DNA from: Negativicutes bacterium
GTDB lineage: Bacteria > Bacillota > Negativicutes > UBA1444
Assembly (NCBI GenBank): GCA_963665275.2
Contig: CAXXIN010000014.1
Coordinates: forward strand, 1-64,000
Direction: 5' to 3'
DNA length: 64,000 bases
The translations under genes and the position numbers were made by a program. A model generated the notes under the pieces. That model had not been told where the DNA came from. It made no database searches and saw only the letters and a program-made list of their open reading frames with translations. Shown here piece by piece: positions 51,539 through 64,000 of the stretch (position 1 is its first letter; each line of letters begins with the position of its first letter).

Positions 51539-51614
51539 GACTCACTAGCTCAATTGGTAGAGCATCTGACTCTTAATCAGAGGGTTCCGGGTTCGAGTCC
51601 CGGGTGGGTCACCA
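51539..51614 (+). tRNA. tRNA-Lys (anticodon CTT)
   Basis: 76-nt cloverleaf: GACTCAC/GTGGGTC acceptor stem, TCTGA-CTCTTAA-TCAGA anticodon arm, GTTCGAG T loop, encoded CCA. Confidence 0.97.
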
Positions 51615-51658: not shown

Positions 51659-51767
51659 ATGCCCATTTCTAAAAGTCTTCTAAAAATCGTAGTTGTGTTT
51701 TGCAAGAATGTTGTTTTTTCGGGGTGTTTGACGGGGTTGAGTTGTGAAGATGCTTTCATTATGGGGC

Positions 51768-53105
51768 TTAGGCGATGATGTGGTTTTCGTGCTCGGAGAT
51801 GATTTGTGATGTATGTTGATGAGTATCCTCAGGCGAATCTGATTGGGGCAGCTTGATTTTAGATCTTTTGGCGGCCAGCATTTTATTGCGATTTTTCTTT
51901 GCTTTACTGATTTTTGTGCGGAGAAATTTTGCGATCGGTGTCGGTTCAGCTACTACCGATTCGTCCGTTTTTTTCATGGGCGGCGTCAACAGGATCCGAT
52001 CCATCGCATTGGCGGCTTCCAATTGCATTTCCGGCAAGACATGGCTGTATAAATCTTGCGTGATCAAGGTCGAGGAATGCCCCAGCCGCTCGGAAATCGT
52101 CTTTACCGGGACATGCTCGAGCAGCAGCATCGTGGCGTGAGTGTGGCGAAGATCGTGAAAGCGGATGAGCGGCAGTTTCTCGCTGCGCAGAAGTTTCAGG
52201 AAGGCGTGGCTGAGAAACGCCGGATCATGTGGCGTTCCATTGTCATACGCCCAGACATAATCGAGCTTTTGATATAACGGGCCGGCCTCCAGCTTTTCGG
52301 CGGTCTGAATCGGTTTTAACGCGGTTAACAGGGTGATGAGCGCCTCAGGGAGTCGGATCGAACGCTCAGAGCGCTGGGTTTTTACGGGTTGGGATTTCAA
52401 TTGGCCGGCCACGCGGTTGAGTGAGTTGCGGACGAACATCAAGCCCCGATCCAGGGCGACATCTTGCCAGCGCAGCCCGCAGCATTCACCGCGGCGGAGA
52501 CCGCAGGTAGCCGCCAGCATAATCGGCAGGTGCAAGGGGGTGTTTTGGGCGGCCAGGATCAGACTGCTCAACAATTCGGGCGTGTAGGAGGAGGAACGGA
52601 ACTTTTCCGTTTTCGGCGCATCGACTGCCAAGATCGGGTTGTTCAGGATCAGGCACCATTTTACGGCGCGGTTCAAAGCGCCGCGTAACACCGCGTAGAC
52701 ATAATGGAGCATTGTTTTGGAGAGGGCGGGTTTTCGTTTGCGCAAGCGGCCAAGCAGATCTTGAAGATGGAGCGGACTGAGGGCTTTGAGTTCGATGCTG
52801 CCGATGTAGGGCGTGACGAAGGTCTCGACCGTCCATTTGTAGCTTTCATAGGTCGACTCGCGAACGGAAGGCTCCACATGATTGGCCAGCCAGCGAGTTA
52901 AAAACTCTTTGACTGTGATCTTCTCCGGATCCAGGAACTTGTCCCGTTCCTGTTCGACCAGCAAATGGGCCAAGGCTTCTTCGGCAAGGGCTTTGTCGGT
53001 GCCTGAACGAATCCAGCGGGTCTTCCATTTTCTCGTTTCGGGGTTTTGGCCAATACTCAAAACAAGATAATAAATATCCCCTTTCTTCTGAATGCTTCCC
53101 TTCAT
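51768..53105 (-). CDS. Tyrosine integrase (phage/ICEBs1-like)
   Basis: MKGSIQKKG arm domain; GLRRGE, K, HDLRHTHAT, RLGHS, DLYSH catalytic set; AGGAGG RBS. Confidence 0.95.
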   Translation of the reverse strand: MKGSIQKKGDIYYLVLSIGQNPETRKWKTRWIRSGTDKALAEEALAHLLVEQERDKFLDPEKITVKEFLTRWLANHVEPSVRESTYESYKWTVETFVTPYIGSIELKALSPLHLQDLLGRLRKRKPALSKTMLHYVYAVLRGALNRAVKWCLILNNPILAVDAPKTEKFRSSSYTPELLSSLILAAQNTPLHLPIMLAATCGLRRGECCGLRWQDVALDRGLMFVRNSLNRVAGQLKSQPVKTQRSERSIRLPEALITLLTALKPIQTAEKLEAGPLYQKLDYVWAYDNGTPHDPAFLSHAFLKLLRSEKLPLIRFHDLRHTHATMLLLEHVPVKTISERLGHSSTLITQDLYSHVLPEMQLEAANAMDRILLTPPMKKTDESVVAEPTPIAKFLRTKISKAKKNRNKMLAAKRSKIKLPQSDSPEDTHQHTSQIISEHENHIIA

Positions 53106-53136
53106 GTTGTGCCTCCTCTGCCGATATTTCATGACA

Positions 53137-53167
53137 AAAGGCCCGTCCGTCTTCACGGCGGGCCTTT
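53137..53167 (-). terminator. Terminator between repressor and integrase
   Basis: Minus strand AAAGGCCCGCCGT-GAAG-ACGGACGGGCCTTTT. Confidence 0.6.
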
Positions 53168-53251
53168 CGGCACAGAACATATTTTGCTAATAGAATCGGT
53201 TTGTTGGGCGCGCCCATGCAGTTGCAGGTTAAATAGCGCTCTAGAGCGGAT

Positions 53252-53938
53252 CTAATCTGTCCCCATGCCGCGCGGCAGGATATGGAATAGTCCCACGCAC
53301 GGTCCAACAATACAAACCCGTTGACGATCACCGGCGGTATAGACTTCCGGTGGTTGCGAGGAGTCTGCAGCCTGCAAGACGAGGGTGTCGGGTTGCACTT
53401 GGACGCAATACCTGAGGCAAAGACGATTGCCGTCGATAATTACCATGCAAAAATCGCCGGGTCGTACCTTGGCGTTGACGTGAGTCAAGACCAAGCACCC
53501 CTCCCCAATTCCTGCCATCGCCATAGATGAATCGGGAGCCGGGAGCAGGACGGCCTGGACGCCGCGGGAAACCGTAGCGACCTCGGCCGGGACGGGATAG
53601 GTGCCGTGAAAACTCAAAAAGGCTAACCTCCCTTCAATAACGGCCACAGATTTATAGATCGGCACGTAGACAACGTCTCCGATCCGAACTGAATCTGCCG
53701 TCGCTGAATACCCCAGGAGGTTATCAACTGTGGTATTGAAAATTTGTGCGATTCGCGGCAGCATCTGAGATTCCGGCGTTCGTTTGCCGATCTCCCATCC
53801 GGATACTGTCACTGGTGAAACGCCCAATTTTTCCGCTACCTGTTTCTGGGTCATCTTCTGTTTGTGCCGTAAATTTTGCAACGTGGTTTGCAGCGGAAAA
53901 ACATGGGCAGATTTCGAATGAGTCATGAAAATAACCAC
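53252..53938 (-). CDS. Xre HTH + S24-like repressor
   Basis: LRHKQKMTQKQVAEKLGVS..TVSGWEIGKRTP; C-terminal DSSM..AGI.EG LexA-like domain. Confidence 0.85.
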   Translation of the reverse strand: MVIFMTHSKSAHVFPLQTTLQNLRHKQKMTQKQVAEKLGVSPVTVSGWEIGKRTPESQMLPRIAQIFNTTVDNLLGYSATADSVRIGDVVYVPIYKSVAVIEGRLAFLSFHGTYPVPAEVATVSRGVQAVLLPAPDSSMAMAGIGEGCLVLTHVNAKVRPGDFCMVIIDGNRLCLRYCVQVQPDTLVLQAADSSQPPEVYTAGDRQRVCIVGPCVGLFHILPRGMGTD

Positions 53939-54118: not shown

Positions 54119-54592
54119 ATGAAAGCGAAAGCAAGCACAAAAGCAGTGAAAGGGAGTGGCGGCGCGGCCCTCAGGTTGGCCAAACCCGGGGAAGCGCCGG
54201 AGCCCTGCCGTATCCCTTTGAAACCAGGAACAACAAAGCCTAGTGCGGCAGAAATGGCGTTTACGGAAGCCGCTGTCGCAAAATCAATGCTGCATACCGA
54301 ACAGATCGCGCCTGGCAACAAGCTGGCCTACAATGTCAGGGAAGCAGCGGAAGCGCTGGGGGTATCCCCCTGGTATGTGCGCGATGAGATGAATCTCGGG
54401 CGGTTGGGCTTTTCCTCCGCGCGTGGCCGCAAAATCATCCCACGCTGGGAACTGGTGCGATATCTGGAAGAATACATGCAGGGACACTCTGAAGCGGCAG
54501 GAGACGAAGAGAATACGCCACTCGTGCCAAACGACTCCGGGACCCCGTCTCTAAAGAAGGCGCTCGCAGGAAGTAAAAAAAGAATGATCTGA
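54119..54592 (+). CDS. Excisionase-like HTH protein
   Basis: LAYNVREAAEALGVS...V......G.L......GRKIIPR.EL..YL; divergent from the repressor. Confidence 0.75.
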   Translation: MKAKASTKAVKGSGGAALRLAKPGEAPEPCRIPLKPGTTKPSAAEMAFTEAAVAKSMLHTEQIAPGNKLAYNVREAAEALGVSPWYVRDEMNLGRLGFSSARGRKIIPRWELVRYLEEYMQGHSEAAGDEENTPLVPNDSGTPSLKKALAGSKKRMI

Positions 54593-54952: not shown

Positions 54953-55624
54953 ATGGAAAATATTGCAGCGATTGTTCAAAGTCTGCTGCCGGCGAAGGGC
55001 GCCGACGGATCCTGGCAAAGAGCGAATCTGCCAGTAGCGGAACCGTCCAACAGAGCACAGCTACATCCGGATAAAGTCCCGTTCATTACTTTTCCGGTAT
55101 CTATCGGCTTGTTGGAAGGAAAGCACGTCGAGGCCATGGGAATCGCCGTCTGGTGCTTTTTATGGTGCATCAATAGGGTAACCTCGGATCGCACCGATCC
55201 GGACGGAGAGCGTTGGGGTCAGGTTCTCGGCGGCTGCCGGTTCAACCATCAACGGATTGCCGATGAACTCGGGATCAGCCTGCGGGCGGTCCGTTACCAG
55301 ATGGATCGTCTGAGATCAGGAGGTTACCTGCGCATTACCCGTTGCCAGGACGGGCAGCAGGTGGAAGTCCGGCACAGCATCAAATGGCTGCGCAGAAAAA
55401 CTCAGGGCGCGCCAAACAGCCGGCCTGAACTGCCACCACCCGTCACAAAACTACCGGACATAGATCCTCCTGTCAGCGTCCCGGAAGTGCTGGTGAACCC
55501 GGTGGTTTCGGTGGCAGAGGAGTCTATCTCGCCAGAGCCCGATGCTGAAACCGCCAAGGTGTTTTCTCTGGCGGAAGCCTTGCGCAGGAAACAATGGGAG
55601 CGGGAGCAAGGCTTGCGGGAATAA
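54953..55624 (+). CDS. Winged-HTH protein, replication-initiator-like
   Basis: HQRIADELGISLRAVRYQMDRLRSGGYLRI followed by a Pro-rich linker; GGAG RBS. Confidence 0.6.
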   Translation: MENIAAIVQSLLPAKGADGSWQRANLPVAEPSNRAQLHPDKVPFITFPVSIGLLEGKHVEAMGIAVWCFLWCINRVTSDRTDPDGERWGQVLGGCRFNHQRIADELGISLRAVRYQMDRLRSGGYLRITRCQDGQQVEVRHSIKWLRRKTQGAPNSRPELPPPVTKLPDIDPPVSVPEVLVNPVVSVAEESISPEPDAETAKVFSLAEALRRKQWEREQGLRE

Positions 55625-55628
55625 AACT

Positions 55629-55662
55629 CCCCTCCCGCCGAAAAAGCGGGAGGGGCTGGGGG
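55629..55662. repeat. GC-rich REP-like hairpin
   Basis: CCCCTCCCGC-CGAAAAA-GCGGGAGGGG followed by CTGGGGG; no U tract. Confidence 0.6.
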
Positions 55663-55736
55663 TAGGTCCGAGACCCTAGCCGACCGAGGCGATTCCGACA
55701 GGGAAAACTTCCAGTGAGCTGCCGCCACCTGCCGAC

Positions 55737-55843
55737 ACGTCGGATAATAGCCCCACGTTATGTCAACCCGAAGGGCGCGCAGCGAAAGCGAGCGGTAGAC
55801 GCGTAGCGGACTACTTTTGACATAACGTTCTATTATCGGATGG
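55737..55843. other. Inverted pair of dif-like (Xer-type) sites forming a long imperfect hairpin
   Basis: ACGTCGGATAA-10 nt-TTATGTCAACC on plus and CCATCCGATAA-7 nt-TTATGTCAAAA on minus, about 50 nt apart. Confidence 0.6.
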
Positions 55844-56066
55844 GCCGGCATGACTGGGCTGAATGATGGCACCCGTTCCCCCGTCCTCCGGCAGCTACCG
55901 TGGCCGATGGATCGGGCGCGGTGGCTGCTACCCAGGCAGCAACAGACGCTAGGCAGTAACGAGGCGTGATCCGGACCGGGGCAGTATGCGCCGGGGAGGA
56001 TGACGCCGACGGGATAGGGCAGGAATCTGCGGGAGGCGATGCGGTTCCCGGCGGTCTGATGCCAAG

Positions 56067-56101
56067 GCGGCCCGACGAACGGCAAACGGAAGCCCGCCAC
56101 G
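56067..56101. repeat. 35-bp direct repeat, copy 1
   Basis: GCGGCCCGACGAACGGCAAACGGAAGCCCGCCACG, identical to 57943-57977. Confidence 0.95.
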
Positions 56102-56157
56102 TCGGTGGCGGGCTGGAGGCCGGGCTAGGGACGCAAAGCGAGATGGGGACGTTTAAA

Positions 56158-57819
56158 TTATTTGGCTCCATATTGCTTCAGATATTCTATCGTTTTCTTA
56201 AACTCAGGAATATTATATTTTTTGTCACATTCCAGCGCATAGTCGAGAGCACTACGGCGACCCTGGTCAAGGACATGCGGATTAGCGCCCATTTCCAGCA
56301 TTCGTAGGATGATTTCGGGTGGGCCGCCCCAGGCCGCGTACATCAGAGGAGTTTTCCCATATTGATCTTGCACATTAATCGCTGCGCCTCTATCCAGCAG
56401 CAAGTTCATTTTTAACCTTCTGCCACCACCGTGCTTTGCGGCCAAAATTAGGGGAGTTCCGCCCTGATTATCCCGCGCGTTAATATCTGCGCCTGCGTCA
56501 AGCAATATCAGCATTTTCGTGTTGTTATCCATAGTCGTTGATACCATCCACATCAAAGGGGTTCTTCCTTCATCATCCCGCGCATTGACTGCAGCACCCA
56601 TTTCAACAAGTAATTTTGCGATATCCGGCTTATAGGCAGCGCTAGCCTGCATTAATACCGTCGTTCCTTTGTTGTTTTTCGCATGAATATCAGCACCGTG
56701 ATCAATCAACATTTTTGACAAATCGGAAGTCCCGTTTTTCGCGGTAGCATGCAGCAACGGCGTGGATCCTGTTTCGTCCCTGGCGTTGATATCTGCGCCT
56801 GCCTCCATCAGATATTGAATTTTGTTCATGCTTTCTATTTGGCTGGGCCTATGACTACTTTGATACCAACGTACTGCTTCAATAAATGCATTGTTTTTGT
56901 CCGCCGGCGAAAAACGAATCCCTTTGGACAACAAATCTTTGACTGTTTCCAAACTCCCCCGCCCGGCCGCGTAGATCAGAGCCGTTTTCCCGCTGGCATC
57001 TTCAGCCTGGATATCGGCGCCTTGGGCAAGCAATAAATCCACGGCATCCACTTTTCCCGTTTCGGCAGCACTCATAAGTGCGATTTGACCTTGGCTGGTT
57101 TTTGAATTGACATTTGCACCGTTTTCCAACAACAGTTTCATAGCTTCGAGATTTCCTCTGTTACTGGCTACCATCAGCAGCGTATTTTCTGGAAGGGAGA
57201 TGGTTTCCACGCCAGCGAAAGGCTTCTGTCTATATATCTTTACCGTCTTTCCACCACCATCAAGGTTTTTCGCATTCACATCCGCGCCTTTGGCGATCAA
57301 GAGTCTGGCCAGATCCAGGTTGCCTTGCTCCAGCGCAATTCCGAGGGGGGCTTCCCACTGGTTGTTTCTTTCGTTGATGCCGATTCCGCCATAGATCAAG
57401 GGCTTGGCCAGGAATGGATATTCTTTGACGGCCAGTGCCGTTGGCGTTCGGACTCCTTGGGCACCCAGCAAGCAACTGAGGATAGCGCAAGCAAGAGTGA
57501 ATCCTACGAAAATTTTCGCTCGACGTTTGGCTTTCGCATCTTCGGTTAAGGACCGGTAACGGGAGAGCATGTGGCCGCTGACAGGGCAGAGGACTATAAC
57601 AATAAAAACTAAACATAACACGAACCACTCTTCCAAATTCCAAGGCTCATGTTGAGCGATAAAAGCCCAGACAAAATAAGCGATAGGTAAAAGCACAAAG
57701 AATCGAACAACGGTATACCCATCGAAAATCCGTAGATTTTTCAGCGTAGCAATCATAAAGACCAACCAGCAAACAAATACAACACTGAGAAGAGGTGCGA
57801 TCTTCACTAGCAGCAGCAT
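56158..57819 (-). CDS. Membrane-anchored ankyrin-repeat protein
   Basis: About 4 N-terminal TM segments, then about 10 G.TPLM.AA...LL..GADINA repeats; AAGGAG RBS. Confidence 0.92.
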   Translation of the reverse strand: MLLLVKIAPLLSVVFVCWLVFMIATLKNLRIFDGYTVVRFFVLLPIAYFVWAFIAQHEPWNLEEWFVLCLVFIVIVLCPVSGHMLSRYRSLTEDAKAKRRAKIFVGFTLACAILSCLLGAQGVRTPTALAVKEYPFLAKPLIYGGIGINERNNQWEAPLGIALEQGNLDLARLLIAKGADVNAKNLDGGGKTVKIYRQKPFAGVETISLPENTLLMVASNRGNLEAMKLLLENGANVNSKTSQGQIALMSAAETGKVDAVDLLLAQGADIQAEDASGKTALIYAAGRGSLETVKDLLSKGIRFSPADKNNAFIEAVRWYQSSHRPSQIESMNKIQYLMEAGADINARDETGSTPLLHATAKNGTSDLSKMLIDHGADIHAKNNKGTTVLMQASAAYKPDIAKLLVEMGAAVNARDDEGRTPLMWMVSTTMDNNTKMLILLDAGADINARDNQGGTPLILAAKHGGGRRLKMNLLLDRGAAINVQDQYGKTPLMYAAWGGPPEIILRMLEMGANPHVLDQGRRSALDYALECDKKYNIPEFKKTIEYLKQYGAK

Positions 57820-57942
57820 AGCAGCTCCTTTCCAATTGTTGCTATTTTCCGCAGGGTATTTCTGGGTTCCTGCGGACAAAAAGCTTAATTATATAGGACG
57901 ATTGTCCTGTTGTGGACATTGAGTTATTAGTGCGAGGTCAGA

Positions 57943-57977
57943 GCGGCCCGACGAACGGCAAACGGAAGCCCGCCACG
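57943..57977. repeat. 35-bp direct repeat, copy 2
   Basis: Identical to 56067-56101. Confidence 0.95.
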
Positions 57978-58022
57978 GATGTGACGGGCATTACGGATCG
58001 ACGCCGGCAGCATACAGCTCGC

Positions 58023-58217
58023 TCATTGGCGGGCGATACGCAGGCGAACCTGTTGGTCGATTTCGCGGCGGGCTTCCGATAGCGAAAGATGGCCGGACTC
58101 CACGCGGGCGAATATGTGGCGGCTCCATTCCGGAACTGCGGCATTCTCCAGTCGCAAATCGGCGCGGGCCTGGCGCATGGCTTCCGCCACCGGCAGGGTT
58201 GTAATGATCTTTTTCAT
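58023..58217 (-). CDS. VbhA-like antitoxin-family small protein
   Basis: AMRQARADLRLEN....EW......RVESGHLSLSEA resembles the VbhA pattern. Confidence 0.55.
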   Translation of the reverse strand: MKKIITTLPVAEAMRQARADLRLENAAVPEWSRHIFARVESGHLSLSEARREIDQQVRLRIARQ

Positions 58218-58248
58218 CGGCAACACGCCCTTTCTGGCAATAATGTGA

Positions 58249-58292
58249 TATCAAAGTAGTATCAAAGTAGTATCAAAATAGTATCAAAGTGC
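58249..58292. repeat. Four tandem 11-bp repeats
   Basis: TATCAAAGTAG TATCAAAGTAG TATCAAAATAG TATCAAAGTGC. Confidence 0.95.
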
Positions 58293-58370
58293 TACTACTT
58301 TTATAGTATATCATGCCGCAGAGCTGCCATGGAGGAGGGCAGTCAGACGGCGAAAAAAGGAGGCTTTCCC

Positions 58371-59219
58371 ATGCAAAAAAATCAATCACTCGAACGCGTA
58401 TTCCACTTTCAAAACAAGCCGGTGCGAACGCTGGACTTCTTTGGCTCGCTCTGGTTCGTGGCGAAAGATGTCTGCGAAGTTCTCCGAATTCGAACGAATT
58501 CCATCCGGTGCGTCCTGGATGAAGATGAGGTGCGAGCGTTCAATCCCAATGACAATAGTATTGACATTGGGCAAGAGGAAGTCGGGCATGGCGGACGCAA
58601 CATGCTGGTGGTAAGCGAACCCGGACTCTATTCTCTCGTATTGAAATCGCGCAGGCCTGAAGCGCGGCAGTTCAGGCGCTGGATTACCCACGAAGTTATT
58701 CCGGTGCTGCGGGCGGCCGGCAGCTACCAAATGCCAGCTCCTGCCGGGTCGGGTCAACTGTTGCAGTTTTCCCGGCGGGATCTGCTCAATCTGGCGGTGG
58801 AGGCGGAAACCGAATGCGAGGAGCTGCGCGGTGTCGTGGTCGACATGTTGCCCAAGGTTGAATTTTACGACCGGGTGGCGGACACGAGCGCGTCGTTTTC
58901 GCTCGGAGAAACGGCCAAGATGATGGAGATCCCCGGTTTCGGACGCAACAACTTGATCCGGTTCCTGCGGGATGGGGCCGGAGTCCTGATGGCCGACAAC
59001 GTGGCCAAGCAGAAATATATCAACCGAGGCTATTTTCATATCGTACAGAGGGACTACTGCGCGCCGGACGGTACGCCGCGCGTGAAAGCGGTGACGCGGG
59101 TCTATGAAAAAGGCGTCGATTATATCCGACACCTTCTGGATGACGGTGAATACTTGGTTGCTGCAAGCGGTAGCGCAGACAGCAGCCATAGTAGATCCGC
59201 ATCCGAAGGATGGAGGTAA
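58371..59219 (+). CDS. Bro-N / KilA-C (ANT) phage antirepressor
   Basis: WFVAKDVCEVL, VSEPGLYSLVLKSRRPEARQFRRWITHEVIP, PKVEFYD, GRNNL..FLR. Confidence 0.92.
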   Translation: MQKNQSLERVFHFQNKPVRTLDFFGSLWFVAKDVCEVLRIRTNSIRCVLDEDEVRAFNPNDNSIDIGQEEVGHGGRNMLVVSEPGLYSLVLKSRRPEARQFRRWITHEVIPVLRAAGSYQMPAPAGSGQLLQFSRRDLLNLAVEAETECEELRGVVVDMLPKVEFYDRVADTSASFSLGETAKMMEIPGFGRNNLIRFLRDGAGVLMADNVAKQKYINRGYFHIVQRDYCAPDGTPRVKAVTRVYEKGVDYIRHLLDDGEYLVAASGSADSSHSRSASEGWR

Positions 59220-59268
59220 GTGGTGGCAAGCGCCAGCGCAGACAGTGGTCATAGTAGATCCGCATCCG
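59163..59268 (+). repeat. Imperfect 43-bp duplication, 63-bp period
   Basis: GCAAGCG..AGCGCAGACAG..G.CATAGTAGATCCGCATCCG at 59163 and 59226. Confidence 0.85.
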
Positions 59269-59527
59269 GAATGAAGTGAAGGACGAATGAGATCTGGACC
59301 GCGCGAACGCGGGCCGGTAGGGTGGAAACGTAAAACAGCCGCCGCAGGAGAATGCGGCGACTGTTTTGAAGAAGAGGATGATACTCAGGGGCAAGCAAAG
59401 CGACCAGACAGCGCTCGCCAGTATCTACGGGTGCATATCCGTTGATACTTCATTATCTTACACCTGATGCAAGAGGAAGGACAACTTGGATTTTCCTTGG
59501 TATCGGGCAAAAAGGGAGGCATATTTT

Positions 59528-60136
59528 ATGAAAATCTGTATTGATCCGGGGCATAGCGGACCGGTAGAGCCGGGAGCTTGCGCTGGCGGCGCGACAGAGG
59601 CGGCGATTAATCTGCAGGTGGCAAAGATTCTGGGCAAGATGCTCGAGAATGCCGGGCACAAAGTAGTGTTGACGCGGGTTGATGACATCGAGGACATTAC
59701 CTTGACGTGGCGCTGCGAGGTGGCGTGGAAGTTCCGGGCGGATCTTTTTATCTGTATCCACTGCAATGCTCATGAAGATAAGGAGGCGCACGGAACGGAG
59801 ACCTGGTATTACGAGACCAGCGAGCGGGGGCACAATCTGGCGCGCTGCATCCAAGCGGCTATCGTCGCCAACTGCGGCACGACCGATCGGGGTGTGAAGT
59901 CTAAAGATGACTGGACCGTGCTGCAGGGTACCACCTGTCCGGCGGTATTGGTGGAGTTGGCATTCATCACGAATGACGAGGAGCGCGCCCGGTTGACCGA
60001 TCCATTTCTGCAGCGGCAGTTCGCGGTGGGAATCAGCAACGGGATCGAACAGTTCGCCAAGGGCGGCTCGCTGTTCGGCGGCGTGGCGGAGAGGCGACAA
60101 AGCTACGATATACGGGCCTTCGCGCGGAGGCGTTGA
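59528..60136 (+). CDS. N-acetylmuramoyl-L-alanine amidase (Amidase_3, no signal peptide)
   Basis: IDPGH, E...NL, CIHCNA, AVLVELAFITN. Confidence 0.93.
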   Translation: MKICIDPGHSGPVEPGACAGGATEAAINLQVAKILGKMLENAGHKVVLTRVDDIEDITLTWRCEVAWKFRADLFICIHCNAHEDKEAHGTETWYYETSERGHNLARCIQAAIVANCGTTDRGVKSKDDWTVLQGTTCPAVLVELAFITNDEERARLTDPFLQRQFAVGISNGIEQFAKGGSLFGGVAERRQSYDIRAFARRR

Positions 60137-60167
60137 CAGTTTTTCGGCGGTGGATCTATACTTAGTT

Positions 60168-60302
60168 CAGACAAACGAATAGCGCACAGGGGATGGAGCG
60201 CACGCACATGGGTATCCCCGCAGGACTTGCAATCCTTGCGGCTACCATACAGTACCTCCATCCCCATTTATCGGGACACGTCGCCATGGCGTGTCCCTTT
60301 CT
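60168..60302 (+). ncRNA. Candidate structured small RNA
   Basis: Promoter TTGACA-18-TATACT (60133-60162), long hairpin 60189-60265, terminator-like hairpin 60273-60302. Confidence 0.45.
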
Positions 60303-60543
60303 CATGCCCGGCGGCCCATCAAGGCCCATCTACTACGTTACGGCTGTGTTTTTCCTGCTTGCGTACGATCTGTACGCCGCGCAGTAAAAGCCTCGCCGTG
60401 CCTTGTAGCTGAACCTTGCTGAACCGTCGGGCGGAAAAAAGAAGCGGGATGCAGGCACAACCGGAAAACCGGGGCCTCGCGTCCCGTTTTTCATAAATAC
60501 GCAGGGAACGCGCGAAAGCGCTGCCCCGAAAGGAGGGATCCTC

Positions 60544-60768
60544 ATGGCTGTTACTAAAGCGCCCCAGGAATCCCGCATCGGCATCAAAGTCATCAACGGC
60601 GTCAACGCCACCGGGGGCAACGTGTTCAAGACGCTGGGCTTTTCCAATGTGAAGCCCGCCGCGCTGGACCAGGACGTCTACGATGTCGCCGCCAGCCTCG
60701 CAGGACTGCAGGCGAAATCGCTGGTCTCGATCGTGCGAACCGACACCGCCAACCTGATCGGCGAGTAA
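60544..60768 (+). CDS. DUF1659 family protein
   Basis: MAV....S...I....G....G..V.KT..FSNVK..A.DQDVY.VA..LA.LQ pattern; GGAGG RBS. Confidence 0.8.
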   Translation: MAVTKAPQESRIGIKVINGVNATGGNVFKTLGFSNVKPAALDQDVYDVAASLAGLQAKSLVSIVRTDTANLIGE

Positions 60769-60802
60769 CGCCGGCACTAAATTTTAAGGAAAGGAGGGGC
60801 AA

Positions 60803-61018
60803 ATGATGACTCGAACACTCAAACTCGGATTCAAAAATGCGGACGGCAAGGATGTGAACATCCTTGTCGCCGACCCGAAAGACGGCATTACCAAAGTGGA
60901 AGCCGTCGCCGCCCAGACGCTGATCATCGCCCGGAACCTGTTCGCATCGACCGGCGGCGATCTCATCTCGGCGCTCGATCCCGTTGTGTTGACTCAGGAC
61001 ACCACGCTGCTGGCCTAG
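60803..61018 (+). CDS. DUF2922 family protein
   Basis: TL.L.F.NADGK...I.V.DPK..IT..E.......II..N.F...GGDL pattern. Confidence 0.8.
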   Translation: MMTRTLKLGFKNADGKDVNILVADPKDGITKVEAVAAQTLIIARNLFASTGGDLISALDPVVLTQDTTLLA

Positions 61019-61022
61019 TCTC

Positions 61023-61217
61023 ATGGACTGGGCGCAGCTCATCTCCCAAGTGGGATTCCCGATTGCAGTTTCTGCATGGCTTTTGATCCGCCTAGATGAT
61101 CGACTCGGCGCGTTCGAAAAGACCGCCGTGGCGATCTGCCAGCGGCTCGAGGACCAAAGCAACCGCTGCAGTGAATGCAAAGAGTGGAGGCAGCGAAACG
61201 AAAAAATGAAGGCATAA
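61023..61217 (+). CDS. YvrJ family small membrane protein
   Basis: LISQVGFPIAVSAWLLIRLD..L followed by a coiled coil. Confidence 0.8.
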   Translation: MDWAQLISQVGFPIAVSAWLLIRLDDRLGAFEKTAVAICQRLEDQSNRCSECKEWRQRNEKMKA

Positions 61218-61257
61218 GCGCTGACCACGCCATCTTTGCTGAAACAAGCTAAAAATG

Positions 61258-61300
61258 AGGGACACGCTGCCGAAGGAAAGGCAGCTGTCCCGCATTTTTT
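61258..61300 (+). terminator. Terminator after the YvrJ-family gene
   Basis: GGGACA-C-GCTGCC...GGCAGC-TGTCCC followed by GCATTTTTT. Confidence 0.65.
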
Positions 61301-61340
61301 GTCATAAAACAACAATGAAAATAATTGAGGGAAAGAGGTT

Positions 61341-61772
61341 TTGAATATGTTGTTAACAGATGTGACCAAGATTTTGAAAGTACTGCTCGGAGCGTTCGGG
61401 GCTGTGGCCTCCCGCGATGATCTTACCCAGCGCCGGATCGGCCAGATCGGCGAAGTGATCGGCGCGGTGGATGATGTGGCGGCGTATGAGGAAGACAAGG
61501 ACGGTGGGGGTGGGACGATGGCCCAGAGGCGCGTCGAGGAAGCGCATGATATTATCCACCGGGTGGCAGCGATATTGGCGATGGAGGATGAGGGGGAGAA
61601 CGGTGGCGGAGACAATTCTGGCGATGCGGGGCAGGACAATACAGGATTGGAAGCAACTGCCGAGCAGGACGTCATCTCCAGGAAGAATGGTGACGAGCCG
61701 CTGGCTGAAGTTCCTTGGGACGGGACGATCGACGGGGAGACCATTGAGCTGAAGGAAGACGAAGAAGAATAA
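61341..61772 (+). CDS. Hypothetical protein with an acidic C-terminus
   Basis: 143-aa ORF with GAGG RBS; helical N-terminus, D/E-rich tail. Confidence 0.6.
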   Translation: MNMLLTDVTKILKVLLGAFGAVASRDDLTQRRIGQIGEVIGAVDDVAAYEEDKDGGGGTMAQRRVEEAHDIIHRVAAILAMEDEGENGGGDNSGDAGQDNTGLEATAEQDVISRKNGDEPLAEVPWDGTIDGETIELKEDEEE

Positions 61773-61929
61773 CCAAGAAGAAAATCATTGGCTAAATGAA
61801 AATGACTGGCTGGAACAACTTCAGCTGGTCGTTTCGTTTCAGAACACCTGAGCAATGTATTCAAAGATGGCCGATTAGCGTCAGGCGGCAGAGTGATCCG
61901 GAAATTCCGGATAACTGCGTCTGACGTCA

Positions 61930-62008
61930 ACGAGCCGCTGGCCGAGTTCCTGAGGACGGGACACTCGCGGGGGAGACCATCGAGCTAAAGGAAGCTGAAG
62001 AAGAATAG
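61930..62008 (+). repeat. Degenerate copy of the last ~80 bp (61693-61772) of the preceding gene
   Basis: ACGAGCCGCTGGC...GGGGAGACCAT.GAGCT.AAGGAAG..GAAGAAGAATA is shared. Confidence 0.85.
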
Positions 62009-62282
62009 CATAACTGTGCGGGCTACAAATAAGTAGCCTGCTTTTTTTGTCTAAGTAGTATTTGATGGCAGGATTACGAAAGGTTTTCGGGAATCGATTG
62101 AACGAGTACCCGAAATTGCAAGTTGAGTATTTTTCCCACATTGGCTGATGAGAGTGACAGACGATTCCGCTTATTCTACTAATGGGTACAAAAAGTAATA
62201 AAGAATTTTATTTTTAGTATTGTAAATACTAAAAATAAAATGTATGATGTCATCAGATGGTCGATCATGGAGGAAATGGAAA

Positions 62283-63893
62283 ATGAATGCGAAAGCATTA
62301 GAATCTTTTGTCCAATTGTTATACATACGAAACATGGTGGATCGGGAGCAGATCTTGTTGGAAGCTGTTCGAGTCGTTCGGACTTTTCAACAGCTGCACA
62401 ACCGACAAGAAACCATTTCCGACACACCGGAAGATAAAGAACTCTTGTTTGCTGAAATGCAAAGTGTTTCGGAGTCTTCCGAATTGGGACACTTTCCCGG
62501 TGATCGGGAATTTTTCTACAACCTCTTTGCGGTTGCATGTGAACTCGACCTGATAGAGTTGCTGGTCAAGTCCGGCCGAAACGACCGCACAGGAATGCTG
62601 GCGCCCGCGTATCTGGTCGAATATTTGGCCGGTGGGATTACAAAAGACACCGCCCGGGTTTTCGTGGCAGAAGCTGAAAAATTTGCCGAAGGTCTGCAAA
62701 AATTAATAGCAGAGAATCCCAAAGTGGAATTTACATTAACGACGGAAAAGAAAATACATTATCTCCTCCTGGTAACGGCTTTTTCACAAAACCATAATGT
62801 CCGGATACTGAATCAATCGATTTATCGTGAACTGTTACATAAAGACAGCTATGATTTATTGCTCACCATTCCATCGTTTGGCAATCGTTATAACTCGGAG
62901 GAATCCAACAATAATTTTATCACTCGAGACTCGGAATGCATCGCCGTGGAAAACCTCCTCCGCCATCTTGGCGAGCGCGGAAAACTGGCCGCAGTGTTGC
63001 CTGCCAAAGTAACCTTCGCCAGCGGTCCGGTTCAGGAGTTTAGACAATGGATCATGGCCGACTATCACCTGGAAGCCATATACTCTCTGCCAGAAGGAAT
63101 CTTCCGGCCCTATGCTGGCATCAAGACGTATTTAATGGTTTTTGACGCAAAAACGACGATAGGGGTTACAGTCGGCAAAATAATCGATGAGGACTATAGA
63201 CTGCTAGTCAAACAAAAGCAATGGATTTCCGACGTAGAATTCAACGGGCACGAAGATTGGCGGACAGAAATATATCTCGCCGATGATAACGAAGCCATCC
63301 AGAAGTTTAAAACCTCCGGTCTCGAAAAAATCAAACTCAAGGATGTGGCAGAAATCTTCCGGGGCAAGTCCGTGCTCAAAGATGATCTGCAGCCAGGAAA
63401 AATAAGAGTCCTGAATATATCCAACATGGACGAAGGCGAACTCATCTTCGACGAAATGGACACCATCCACGAAGAAATTCGCAAGGTGAAACGGTATCAA
63501 CTGGAATCTGGCGATATCGTGCTAACCTGTCGGGGGACATCAAACAAAGTCGCCGTCTTCCCGGAAACAGAGCATGTGGTCATTGCCTCGGCAAACATCA
63601 TCGTGCTGCGTATCAAAGAAAAGATCGCGCCTCAATATCTGAAAATATTCCTGGATAGTCCGATCGGACAAATGATGATCAAGAGTTTTCAACGGGGAAC
63701 CACGATGATGAACATCAACCCCAACGACATCGGCGAAATGGAGATTCCGCTGCTGCCCATGGAAAGACAACAAAGTCTCGTTCGGCAGTTTCTGGCAGAA
63801 CAGGAACGATATCGGCGGGAAAAAGCGGAAATTGAACAGCGATGGGAAAAAGAACGCTCGGAACTATACAATAATTTTGTAAGGGGATGCTAA
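62283..63893 (+). CDS. Type I R-M-associated protein: degenerate N6-MTase domain fused to one HsdS-like TRD
   Basis: L...GKLAAVLP...F......[18 protein letters not shown]; C-terminal [35 protein letters not shown]. Confidence 0.75.
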
Positions 63894-63894
63894 G

Positions 63895-64000
63895 ATGGCG
63901 GAGAATGCGAATGGTGCAACACTTGGCTTTGAAGAAAAACTGTGGCAGGCTGCGGACAAAATGCGCAACAATATGGATGCGGCCGAATACAAACATGTTG
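63895..64000 (+). CDS. hsdM: Type I R-M methyltransferase subunit (5' part, truncated by the window)
   Basis: [35 protein letters not shown] matches the HsdM N-terminal pattern. Confidence 0.88.

Follow-up and report, generated by a model that had tools for sequence, protein, structure and literature searches.

What does an integrated genomic island with an integrase of its own do with two inverted, dif-like sites placed directly behind its replication gene? The question is raised by a 64,000-nucleotide (nt) stretch of DNA from a Negativicutes bacterium (contig CAXXIN010000014.1 of assembly GCA_963665275.2, positions 1 to 64,000), which is called the window here and corresponds to C14:1-64000 of genome G000 (3.97 Mb, 20 contigs). 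An earlier reading made from the letters of the window alone (the sequence-only reading) had described an inverted dif-like pair at 55737-55843 and had likened it to the attachment site (attP) that the CTX phage folds from single-stranded DNA (ssDNA). The inverted dif-like hairpin proved to be real and far beyond chance. Going further than that reading, we found the hairpin to be part of a unit of ~350 nt, an inverted second copy of which is located 22 kb away, such pairs of units flanking cargo genes. The interpretation that we favour, with a probability of only about 0.45, is that the unit may be a Xer-recognised, folded-DNA recombination junction that partitions the backbone of the island from its cargo. 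Genomes are designated below by G labels (including G005, G006, G010, G011, and G012), contigs by C and loci by L; the family examined comprised 13 genomes, and the order holds the identical 13.

The hairpin was present at exactly the coordinates and with exactly the letters that had been proposed, and its pairing reaches further, to an outer stem extension that brings the full structure to 55730-55850 on the + strand (inverted repeats I1 and I8, ssDNA fold, and model R1). The left dif-like site (55737-55768, +) is composed of a XerC-like arm (55737-55747), a 10-nt centre (55748-55757) and a XerD-like arm (55758-55768), and the right one (55815-55843, -; 29 bp) of an 11-nt XerC-like arm, a 7-nt centre and an 11-nt XerD-like arm; both centres are non-canonical. 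The 46 nt between the two sites form the hairpin tip loop (55769-55814, +), where the minimum-energy fold and a triloop census placed all three of the mini-hairpins that had been read there (CC-GAA-GG, GC-GAAA-GC, and GC-GTA-GC). The pattern ATAA-N5-10-TTATGTNAA was matched twice in the window, against 0.01 matches expected, and five times genome-wide. When folded as ssDNA the + strand of the hairpin reached -31.1 kcal/mol (z -4.2), with none of 200 shuffled sequences equally stable, compared with -25.3 kcal/mol (z -3.1) for the - strand. The covariance model of the hairpin (R1) gave the + strand 122.9 bits and the - strand 34.2 bits, a difference that is not independent evidence because the model was built from + strands.

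The host dif was located in an intergenic position at C9:18607-18625; it is the sole strict match to the dif pattern with a 6-nt centre in G000, and it is situated at the peak of the cumulative GC skew of C9 (15-20 kb), a signature of the replication terminus. The dif core was also found once in each of three relatives. Compared with the host dif, the XerC-like arms in the window are identical at 10 (left) and 9 (right) of 11 positions, and the XerD-like arms at 8 of 11. The agreement is closer for the right-hand XerD arm of other units, where 10-11 of 11 positions and also three flanking bases are those of dif; in the unit at 83.6 kb of G010:C33 arm and flanking bases together match at 14/14. 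A relaxed search of G000, using the 9-nt XerC arm (at most one mismatch), a centre of 5-10 nt and TTATGT (at most one mismatch), returned 22 matches, only five of which have TTATGT exactly, namely the chromosomal dif and the four sites of the island's two units. A dissimilarity between host dif arms and hairpin arms had been named in advance as a ground for giving up the sequence-only reading; the comparison found them closely alike, and since the hairpin arms match the host dif, it favours a reading that involves Xer recombinases. Among the proteins of G000 are XerD, which at 381 bits exceeds the curated cut-off, and a second close Xer paralogue (325 bits); the two Xer genes lie at C9:110709-111584 and C4:80204-81073. 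By these comparisons the arms are copies of the host's own dif, beyond a generic consensus, and a link between the unit and the Xer system is strongly supported by sequence.

The hairpin is embedded in a conserved non-coding unit ("P unit") at 55672-56024 (+), in which a mini-hairpin-bearing 5' segment is followed by the dif-pair hairpin, then by a linker and two more hairpins. Both downstream hairpins were delineated by RNAalifold pairs in alignment A1: H2 at 55890-55929 (+; columns 277-321), where four pairs show compensatory changes, and H3 at 55962-56009 (+; columns 358-407). Using the intergenic sequence as query, BLAST identified the second, inverted unit of the same island at C14:77445-77759, with 74% identity over 55699-56022. 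The unit alone as query matched six of the 13 family genomes, G000 included, and the covariance model recovered 11 hairpins in five of them (two in G000, four in G010, one each in G005 and G011, and three in G012). When one genome per species (185,579 species) was scanned with the exact pattern, 13 loci came up, of which four were true units, in metagenome-assembled genomes named as Sporomusaceae, Negativicutes or Veillonellaceae; these four had already been recovered by the genome similarity search, and the other nine were chance matches without outer pairing. The same scan of metagenomes of the Joint Genome Institute yielded 41 loci: eight true units, all in one metagenome, four other hairpins of the same design, and 29 loci either without pairing of the outer arms or within coding sequence. 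Among viral contigs, the exact hairpin pattern and the downstream pattern gave one match each, both by chance in unrelated sequence. Rfam contained nothing that matched the unit, either at the gathering score or at E-values up to 10, and a literature search by titles and abstracts (Xer or dif-like hairpins, defence islands, and dif of Negativicutes) retrieved no description of such units.

Some variation in the build of the units was apparent. In G006:C492 (L019) the two downstream hairpins are present, 83% identical to those of the window, without the dif hairpin, and in L082 (1240-1400) the dif hairpin is present and a different sequence replaces the second hairpin, so the unit itself is modular. 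Four of seven far-end units compared carry an extra conserved structured segment 70-200 nt upstream (at L001:13820-13870 on the - strand, L022:7415-7529, L021:9343-9461, and upstream of the L066 unit), which includes a 25-nt stretch identical between G000 and G010:C27. The four metagenomic hairpins of the same design represent three other families (L052:1629-1693, L065:410-474, L053:264-336, and L079:293-365), each with two inverted dif-like sites whose centres measure 6-7 nt on the left and 7-9 nt on the right, and with loops and flanks that are unrelated. The hairpins of L052 and L065 adjoin a gene for a radical-SAM protein, apart from which PHROGs and Pfam searches of the open reading frames beside the three families gave nothing informative. 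Given these further families, the architecture may extend beyond the family of the unit described here.

For the analysis of the fold an alignment of 15 hairpins (A3) was used for covariation counts, centre lengths, and the mosaic comparison described below. It leaves out L046, which is cut by a contig end and has a hairpin identical to that of L076, and the hairpins of G010:C27 (67.5 kb), G012:C434, and G012:C246, which were recovered later by the covariance model. Pairing was scored over 564 cells on a structure written from the single-sequence fold. Of these cells 86.0% pair, compared with 82.1% in shuffled alignments (0/500 reach the observed value) and 29-52% when the partners are slid against each other, and the covariation score is 0.141 compared with 0.087 in shuffles (0/500). 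The clearest covariation signal comes from the edges of the centres, which agree between left and right site within a unit and vary among units (TAG..ACG, CAT..CG, CGC..AT, CCTT..G, and TC..ACG). In the later-recovered hairpin at 67.5 kb of G010:C27, GACAA is paired with TTGTC where GATAA and TTATC are found elsewhere. Nine of the 15 units have a left centre of 6 nt, and in the others it measures 5, 9 or 10 nt; the right centre is 7 nt long in 11, 8 nt in three and 6 nt in one. The stem and the bulged centre, whose retention in homologs had been put forward as a check on the sequence-only reading, are kept with compensatory changes.

One strand folds better than the other. In A3, G.T cells number 40 and A.C cells 18, and inspection of the alignment traced most A.C cells to four mis-aligned rows and to the loop columns of one tip family. 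Folded as ssDNA the whole unit reaches -85.8 kcal/mol on the + strand (z -4.13), whereas the - strand has a z of -1.68. In the 17 tips that could be parsed (one hairpin remained unparsed) there are 37 C-GNA-G triloop hairpins with two-bp stems, in which N is C in 14, T in 12, A in seven, and G in four. Such triloops are unusually stable in DNA. The expectation of an ssDNA-type fold was supported on both counts, by the strand preference and by loops of the C-GNA-G kind that is typical of DNA, and a folded, single-strand character of the unit is reasonably supported.

The mosaic structure of the units was examined by cutting each of the 15 units at motif borders into five parts, namely the upstream flank, the left arm with its centre, the tip (the loop with a XerD arm on either side), the right centre with its arm, and the downstream flank. 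The window unit and L082 are 100% identical in left arm plus centre and in right centre plus arm, and 67% identical in the tip; with the unit of L070 (a D-type unit) the window unit shares 93% of the tip, 55% of the left arm plus centre and 79% of the right centre plus arm. The converse pattern is seen in the unit at 83.6 kb of G010:C33, which is 100% identical to the second unit of G000 in left arm plus centre, 75% in the tip and 71% in right centre plus arm; its values against L076 are 75, 90, and 57%, respectively. In three-way alignments the switches fall within CG/TTATGT on the left and ACATAA/CG on the right, which are the XerD-arm borders of the centres. Judged from these alignments, hairpin tips and outer arms are reassorted between units. 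The 6-nt left centre CATTCG is identical in seven of 15 units despite differing tips and flanks, a pattern that fits selection for recombination compatibility. Assembled contigs of sequencing runs from two studies reproduce the sequence of the window at this place without differences, which rules out that the mosaic of the window unit arose as an artefact in the assembly of a single data set. The only raw-read run contributed one placed read, and no RNA run was among those listed with the stretch. In run X1 the contig covering 51585-56096 has a mean word depth of 34, compared with 47-49 for its neighbors and 43-49 for flanking and cargo contigs taken together; these are whole-contig means, which may mean nothing and were not used as evidence.

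The genomic context of the units was determined next to their sequence. The island of the window is inserted at a tRNA-Lys(CTT) gene (51539-51614, +), the last 45 nt of which are repeated at C14:83335-83379, a repeat that defines an island of ~31.8 kb. Downstream of the tRNA gene follow a tyrosine integrase (51768-53180, -; Pfam Phage_integrase, E 2.3e-21), which is the sole recombinase of the island and has N-terminal domains of phage type, a CI-like repressor with HTH_3 and Peptidase_S24 domains (53252-53938, -), an excisionase-like regulator with an HTH_17 domain (54119-54592, +; phrog_66), and the gene of a DnaD-like replication protein (54953-55624, +; phrog_7498, E 1.4e-20, with weak winged helix-turn-helix matches in Pfam). 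This last gene lies directly 5' of the unit, in agreement with the placement of the hairpin just downstream of a rep-like gene by the sequence-only reading. A hairpin resembling an intrinsic terminator, with its T-run on the - strand, is located between the two (55629-55655, -), no promoter-like site was found in 55400-56300, and the hairpin of the window is located between convergent genes. The cargo arc begins beyond the unit (56158-64000) with an ankyrin protein, an antirepressor, an amidase, and a methylase/specificity gene, and continues past the window with type I restriction-modification (R-M) genes, SMODS and S_4TM genes resembling a cyclic-oligonucleotide-based antiphage signaling system (CBASS), a Schlafen/AlbA_2 gene, and further ATPases up to the second unit.

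Three islands carry both units on one contig, and all three have the order integrase, replication gene, unit (forward), cargo, and unit (reverse), with the units 13-22 kb apart. In G000:C14 the sequence of features is tRNA-Lys, integrase, regulators, rep, unit (+, 55.7 kb), cargo, AlbA_2, and unit (-, 77.6 kb). In G010:C33 it is tRNA-Leu, integrase, M78 peptidase, a rep gene of the Lin1244_N type, unit (99.0-99.3 kb), cargo, AlbA_2, and inverted unit (83.5-83.9 kb), followed by host-like genes, and in G010:C27 it is tRNA-Ala, integrase, Lin1244_N rep, unit (67.5 kb), cargo including antirepressor and amidase, AlbA_2, and inverted unit (54.6 kb), followed by a host-like sensor gene. In the two G010 islands, a search around the far-end units for repeats of the tRNA ends came up empty. 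With a replication-side unit and an inverted far-side unit, the island is split into a backbone arc and a cargo arc. The first unit follows directly after replication genes in the window, L082, L046, L074, G010:C33, and G010:C27. The genes beside units vary and are often defence genes: a Gabija-like OLD/UvrD pair in L067; RelA_SpoT, GmrSD, Vsr, and NgoMIV in L070; and R-M and SMODS genes. Other neighbors in the metagenome are a TnsA-like protein and a PIF1-like helicase (L066), CoiA and a methylase (L075), rep, a G39P-like loader and DUF3795 (L046), and an isochorismatase (L074). The carriers are tRNA-integrating, self-replicating islands of Sporomusaceae-like Negativicutes. Their integrases, with identities of 31% and 55%, use tRNA-Lys, -Leu, and -Ala as targets, and no relationship exists between two of the Rep proteins (E 0.33); the unit is therefore not tied to one integrase or initiator. 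Concerning the recombinase, the sequence-only reading had named host XerC/XerD or the element's own tyrosine recombinase. Its first part is supported in that the arms match dif and that XerD and a paralogue are encoded; with integrases this divergent at three tRNA genes, the island's own integrase is an unlikely partner of the unit.

Several further observations were made in the island and the window. The cargo at C14:64003-74744 (L001:3-7884 and L001:7933-10744) contains two SMODS-domain genes followed by an S_4TM effector (CBASS-like), and also a complete set of type I R-M genes accompanied by one with an FRG domain, and a fragment with a Fic domain. A GC-rich, terminator-like hairpin of ~60 nt occurs three times in the island (56067-56130, 57943-57989, and C14:74757-74816); it has matches, often multicopy, in 10 of 41 related genomes, behaves like a repeat of the repetitive extragenic palindromic type, and interrupts assemblies of public runs at 56072-56096 and 57948-57972. 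An exact 24-nt repeat (51666-51689 and C14:83219-83242) lies ~50 nt and ~93 nt inside the island ends and possibly represents arm-type binding sites of the integrase. Far from the island, within positions 1-12000 of the window, the GC skew turns from negative to positive near 9-10 kb beside a stretch of low GC content (0.35); a 16S rRNA gene (211-1757, -) is located near the flip, which may mark the region of the replication origin or a change of gene orientation.

Since the unit shows two inverted copies of the host dif, the housekeeping XerC/XerD should recognise it. Under the junction interpretation, the strand of the unit that runs from backbone to cargo would fold into a bulged hairpin mimicking one dif duplex. 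By the geometry of the islands the folding strand of both units runs 5' to 3' from backbone to cargo, and would be the template of lagging-strand synthesis for forks that start from the island's own origin in the backbone. Strand exchange by Xer between units with matching centres would then swap hairpin tips and probably cargo. We infer that XerC and XerD may bind and cut the unit, that their substrate would be folded ssDNA and not duplex DNA, and that cargo might be exchanged through the units.

A number of observations weigh against this interpretation. No recombination event was detected: the three runs gave assembled contigs that do not differ from the window and contain no joint at the unit. 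No complete cargo module recurs between different pairs of units. Antirepressor and amidase genes recur near the first unit and AlbA_2 near the second (in three of seven cases with readable flanks at far-end units), so some of what is called cargo here may belong to the backbone, and the units may be nothing more than fixed cis elements. The mosaic could also have arisen by gene conversion or homologous exchange via 8-nt conserved stretches, because any crossover would map to conserved sequence. With respect to the fold, the two measures that count pairs or pair types beat the shuffles only weakly: seven pairs change on both sides, which 59 of 500 shuffles equal, and the other measure is equalled by 52 of 500. 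The left centres of 9-10 nt, that of the window among them, exceed the range of 6-8 bp of known duplex Xer sites, and many centres differ from the dif centre beside the XerC arm. The flanking structured segments of 85 nt and 170 nt are not explained by Xer binding. Finally, all sequences come from one small family and one metagenome and are as a consequence not independent of each other.

Among the alternatives, the one closest to the sequence-only reading holds that XerC recombines the folded hairpin of a single-stranded element with the chromosomal dif. In PMC4246890, CTX attP is described as two inverted dif-like sites with centres of 12 bp and 5-7 bp, 90 bp apart, which function only when folded and in which the centre bases beside the XerC arm set the specificity. 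The anatomy seen here matches that account in its paired sites with abnormal centres, of which one strand pairs into a bulged mimic of dif, in the arms that copy the host dif and in the presence of host Xer genes (here XerD and a paralogue); the intra-strand fold is kept in the relatives of the window unit, and the first two centre bases beside the XerC arm of the window unit (TA) are those of the dif centre. However, the units with a 6-nt left centre begin it with C, unlike the dif centre. The island resides in tRNA-Lys and not at dif, has its own integrase and a DnaD-like or, in other islands, Lin1244_N replication protein, and its host is a Negativicute where that of CTX is Vibrio cholerae; no sequence derived from the unit was found beside dif, or elsewhere on the contig that carries dif, in the four genomes inspected (G000, G005, G010, and G012). 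The hairpin is intact in the integrated island, whereas the folded attP of CTX is lost when the phage integrates as a duplex prophage (PMC4246890), and it occurs in two inverted copies within a structured unit of ~350 nt, which is not a CTX feature. The single-stranded phase that had been proposed for the element found no counterpart among the genes of the island, where matches to rolling-circle Rep, Zot, coat, filamentous-phage or inovirus genes were absent. A CTX-style life cycle is not supported, and we judge this alternative to be quite improbable. Somewhat less improbable, though still unlikely, is multimer resolution in the manner of cer and psi, in which XerCD would act on the right 29-bp site with the adjacent 170 nt as accessory sequence and resolve dimers of the excised circle, the left copy and the fold being secondary. 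Such a role would suit an island with an integrase, an excisionase-like gene and a replication protein, and it would explain why the right centre stays within 6-8 nt in 15/15 units while the left one ranges from 5 to 10, why the XerD arm of the right site is the better dif copy, and why the conserved segment lies on the XerC side, where the accessory sequences of cer and psi are also located. Four dif-like sites per island in two inverted units would nevertheless favour inversion over resolution, the co-variation of left arm and centre with the right site would be needless for a lone duplex site, the supposed accessory segment shows stem covariation beyond its sequence conservation, and the mosaic tips would have no explanation.

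The two remaining alternatives dispense with recombination. As a signal of ssDNA replication, the unit might serve lagging-strand priming, primosome assembly or as part of an origin, its dif-like arms having been recruited otherwise or being incidental. The position of the first unit directly after the replication genes, the coincidence of the folding strand with the lagging-strand template in both units, and the C-GNA-G mini-hairpins in the tips, which are typical of ssDNA origins, are all consistent with such a signal. Near-perfect copies of both dif arms in both sites of all units would remain unexplained by it, the far-end units are situated among defence genes with no rep gene nearby, and, with neighboring Rep proteins that share no relationship, the unit is no Rep-specific origin; we regard a replication signal as about as improbable as the CTX-type attP. 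Transcription of the + strand into a structured non-coding RNA appears more remote than any of these. Several conserved stems with G-U-compatible wobbles on one strand and the lack of a + strand terminator between the rep gene and the unit would be expected of an RNA, but the empty Rfam search, the missing promoter-like site around the window unit, and the terminator-like hairpins on the unit strand between the second copy and its nearest promoter-like site speak against transcription of an RNA, as do the GNA triloops in place of the tetraloops common in RNA; an RNA would also have no reason to copy both dif arms. Some candidate readings were dropped at an earlier stage. The XerC-like arm agreed with a DnaA box at 6/9 positions of the consensus by eye, the interpretation of the units as terminal inverted repeats of a transposon would put the rep gene beyond the segment that they enclose although that gene keeps its place next to the first unit, and an antitermination RNA was set aside with the genes downstream of units being mostly convergent.

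If the units are indeed recombination junctions, their closest analogs in layout are not those in shape. In PMC13141974, dif modules of Acinetobacter plasmids are bounded by inversely oriented plasmid dif sites (pdif), modules with XerC inside alternate with modules with XerD inside, and the rep backbone is of the XerC-inside type. Read as duplexes, all three islands with both units follow the alternation given there, with backbone (C), tip (D), cargo (C), and tip (D); identical centres occur in different contexts, and parts reassort at the sites. In contrast to the single 28-bp pdif sites with 6-bp spacers, the sites here are close inverted pairs, with centres of 5-10 nt and 6-8 nt selected to pair, the tip modules are structured loops of 46-60 nt without genes, and the carriers are chromosomal, tRNA-integrated islands of Negativicutes instead of Rep_3 plasmids of Acinetobacter. 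Unlike for pdif, no inversion or deletion product of the units was seen in the assembled contigs of the runs, and no whole gene module was found in two contexts; the tips reassort, at the XerD-arm borders. With the attC sites of integrons, as the abstract of PMC4792948 and general background describe them, the units share imperfect inverted repeats that act, or in the units would act, as folded single strands, an unpaired centre, a variable terminal structure, a location at junctions of variable genes, and, by the geometry of the islands, a best fold on the lagging-strand template. They differ from attC in their dif-like arms (no scan for the attC box consensus was made), in the absence of an integron integrase and attI, in the two inverted units in place of a co-oriented array, and in the presumed enzyme, which would be the housekeeping XerCD. 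To cer and psi they are similar in the right-hand Xer core site with a centre of 6-8 bp on a replicating element and in the conserved segment on the XerC side; the differences are the paired inverted sites, four per element, the stem covariation of the flanking 170 nt, and the lack of identified accessory-protein sites at the unit. By analogy, the layout of the unit resembles that of the pdif modules of Acinetobacter and its shape that of CTX attP or integron attC; we have filed it under neither CTX attP nor pdif, and in part it would work like both.

What is known of elements that exploit Xer concerns mainly phages and islands without an integrase that use dif in Proteobacteria, along with the pdif modules on Acinetobacter plasmids. 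Here, copies of the host dif are built into a conserved folded unit at the place where backbone gives way to cargo, in Negativicutes islands that have their own integrases and whose cargo includes R-M, CBASS-like, and Gabija-like defence genes. That XerC and XerD exchange gene modules on folded ssDNA mimics of dif outside the Proteobacteria, with paired units that fold on the lagging-strand template of a replicating island, and so swap anti-phage and other cargo between unrelated tRNA islands in the manner of integrons and pdif modules, is a tentative extension of the junction interpretation, which we hold to be possible and yet rather unlikely. If Xer does act on the units, a housekeeping recombinase would shuffle defence cargo among otherwise unrelated mobile elements, and the folded-substrate logic of the CTX phage and of integrons would reach a new lineage and a new role.

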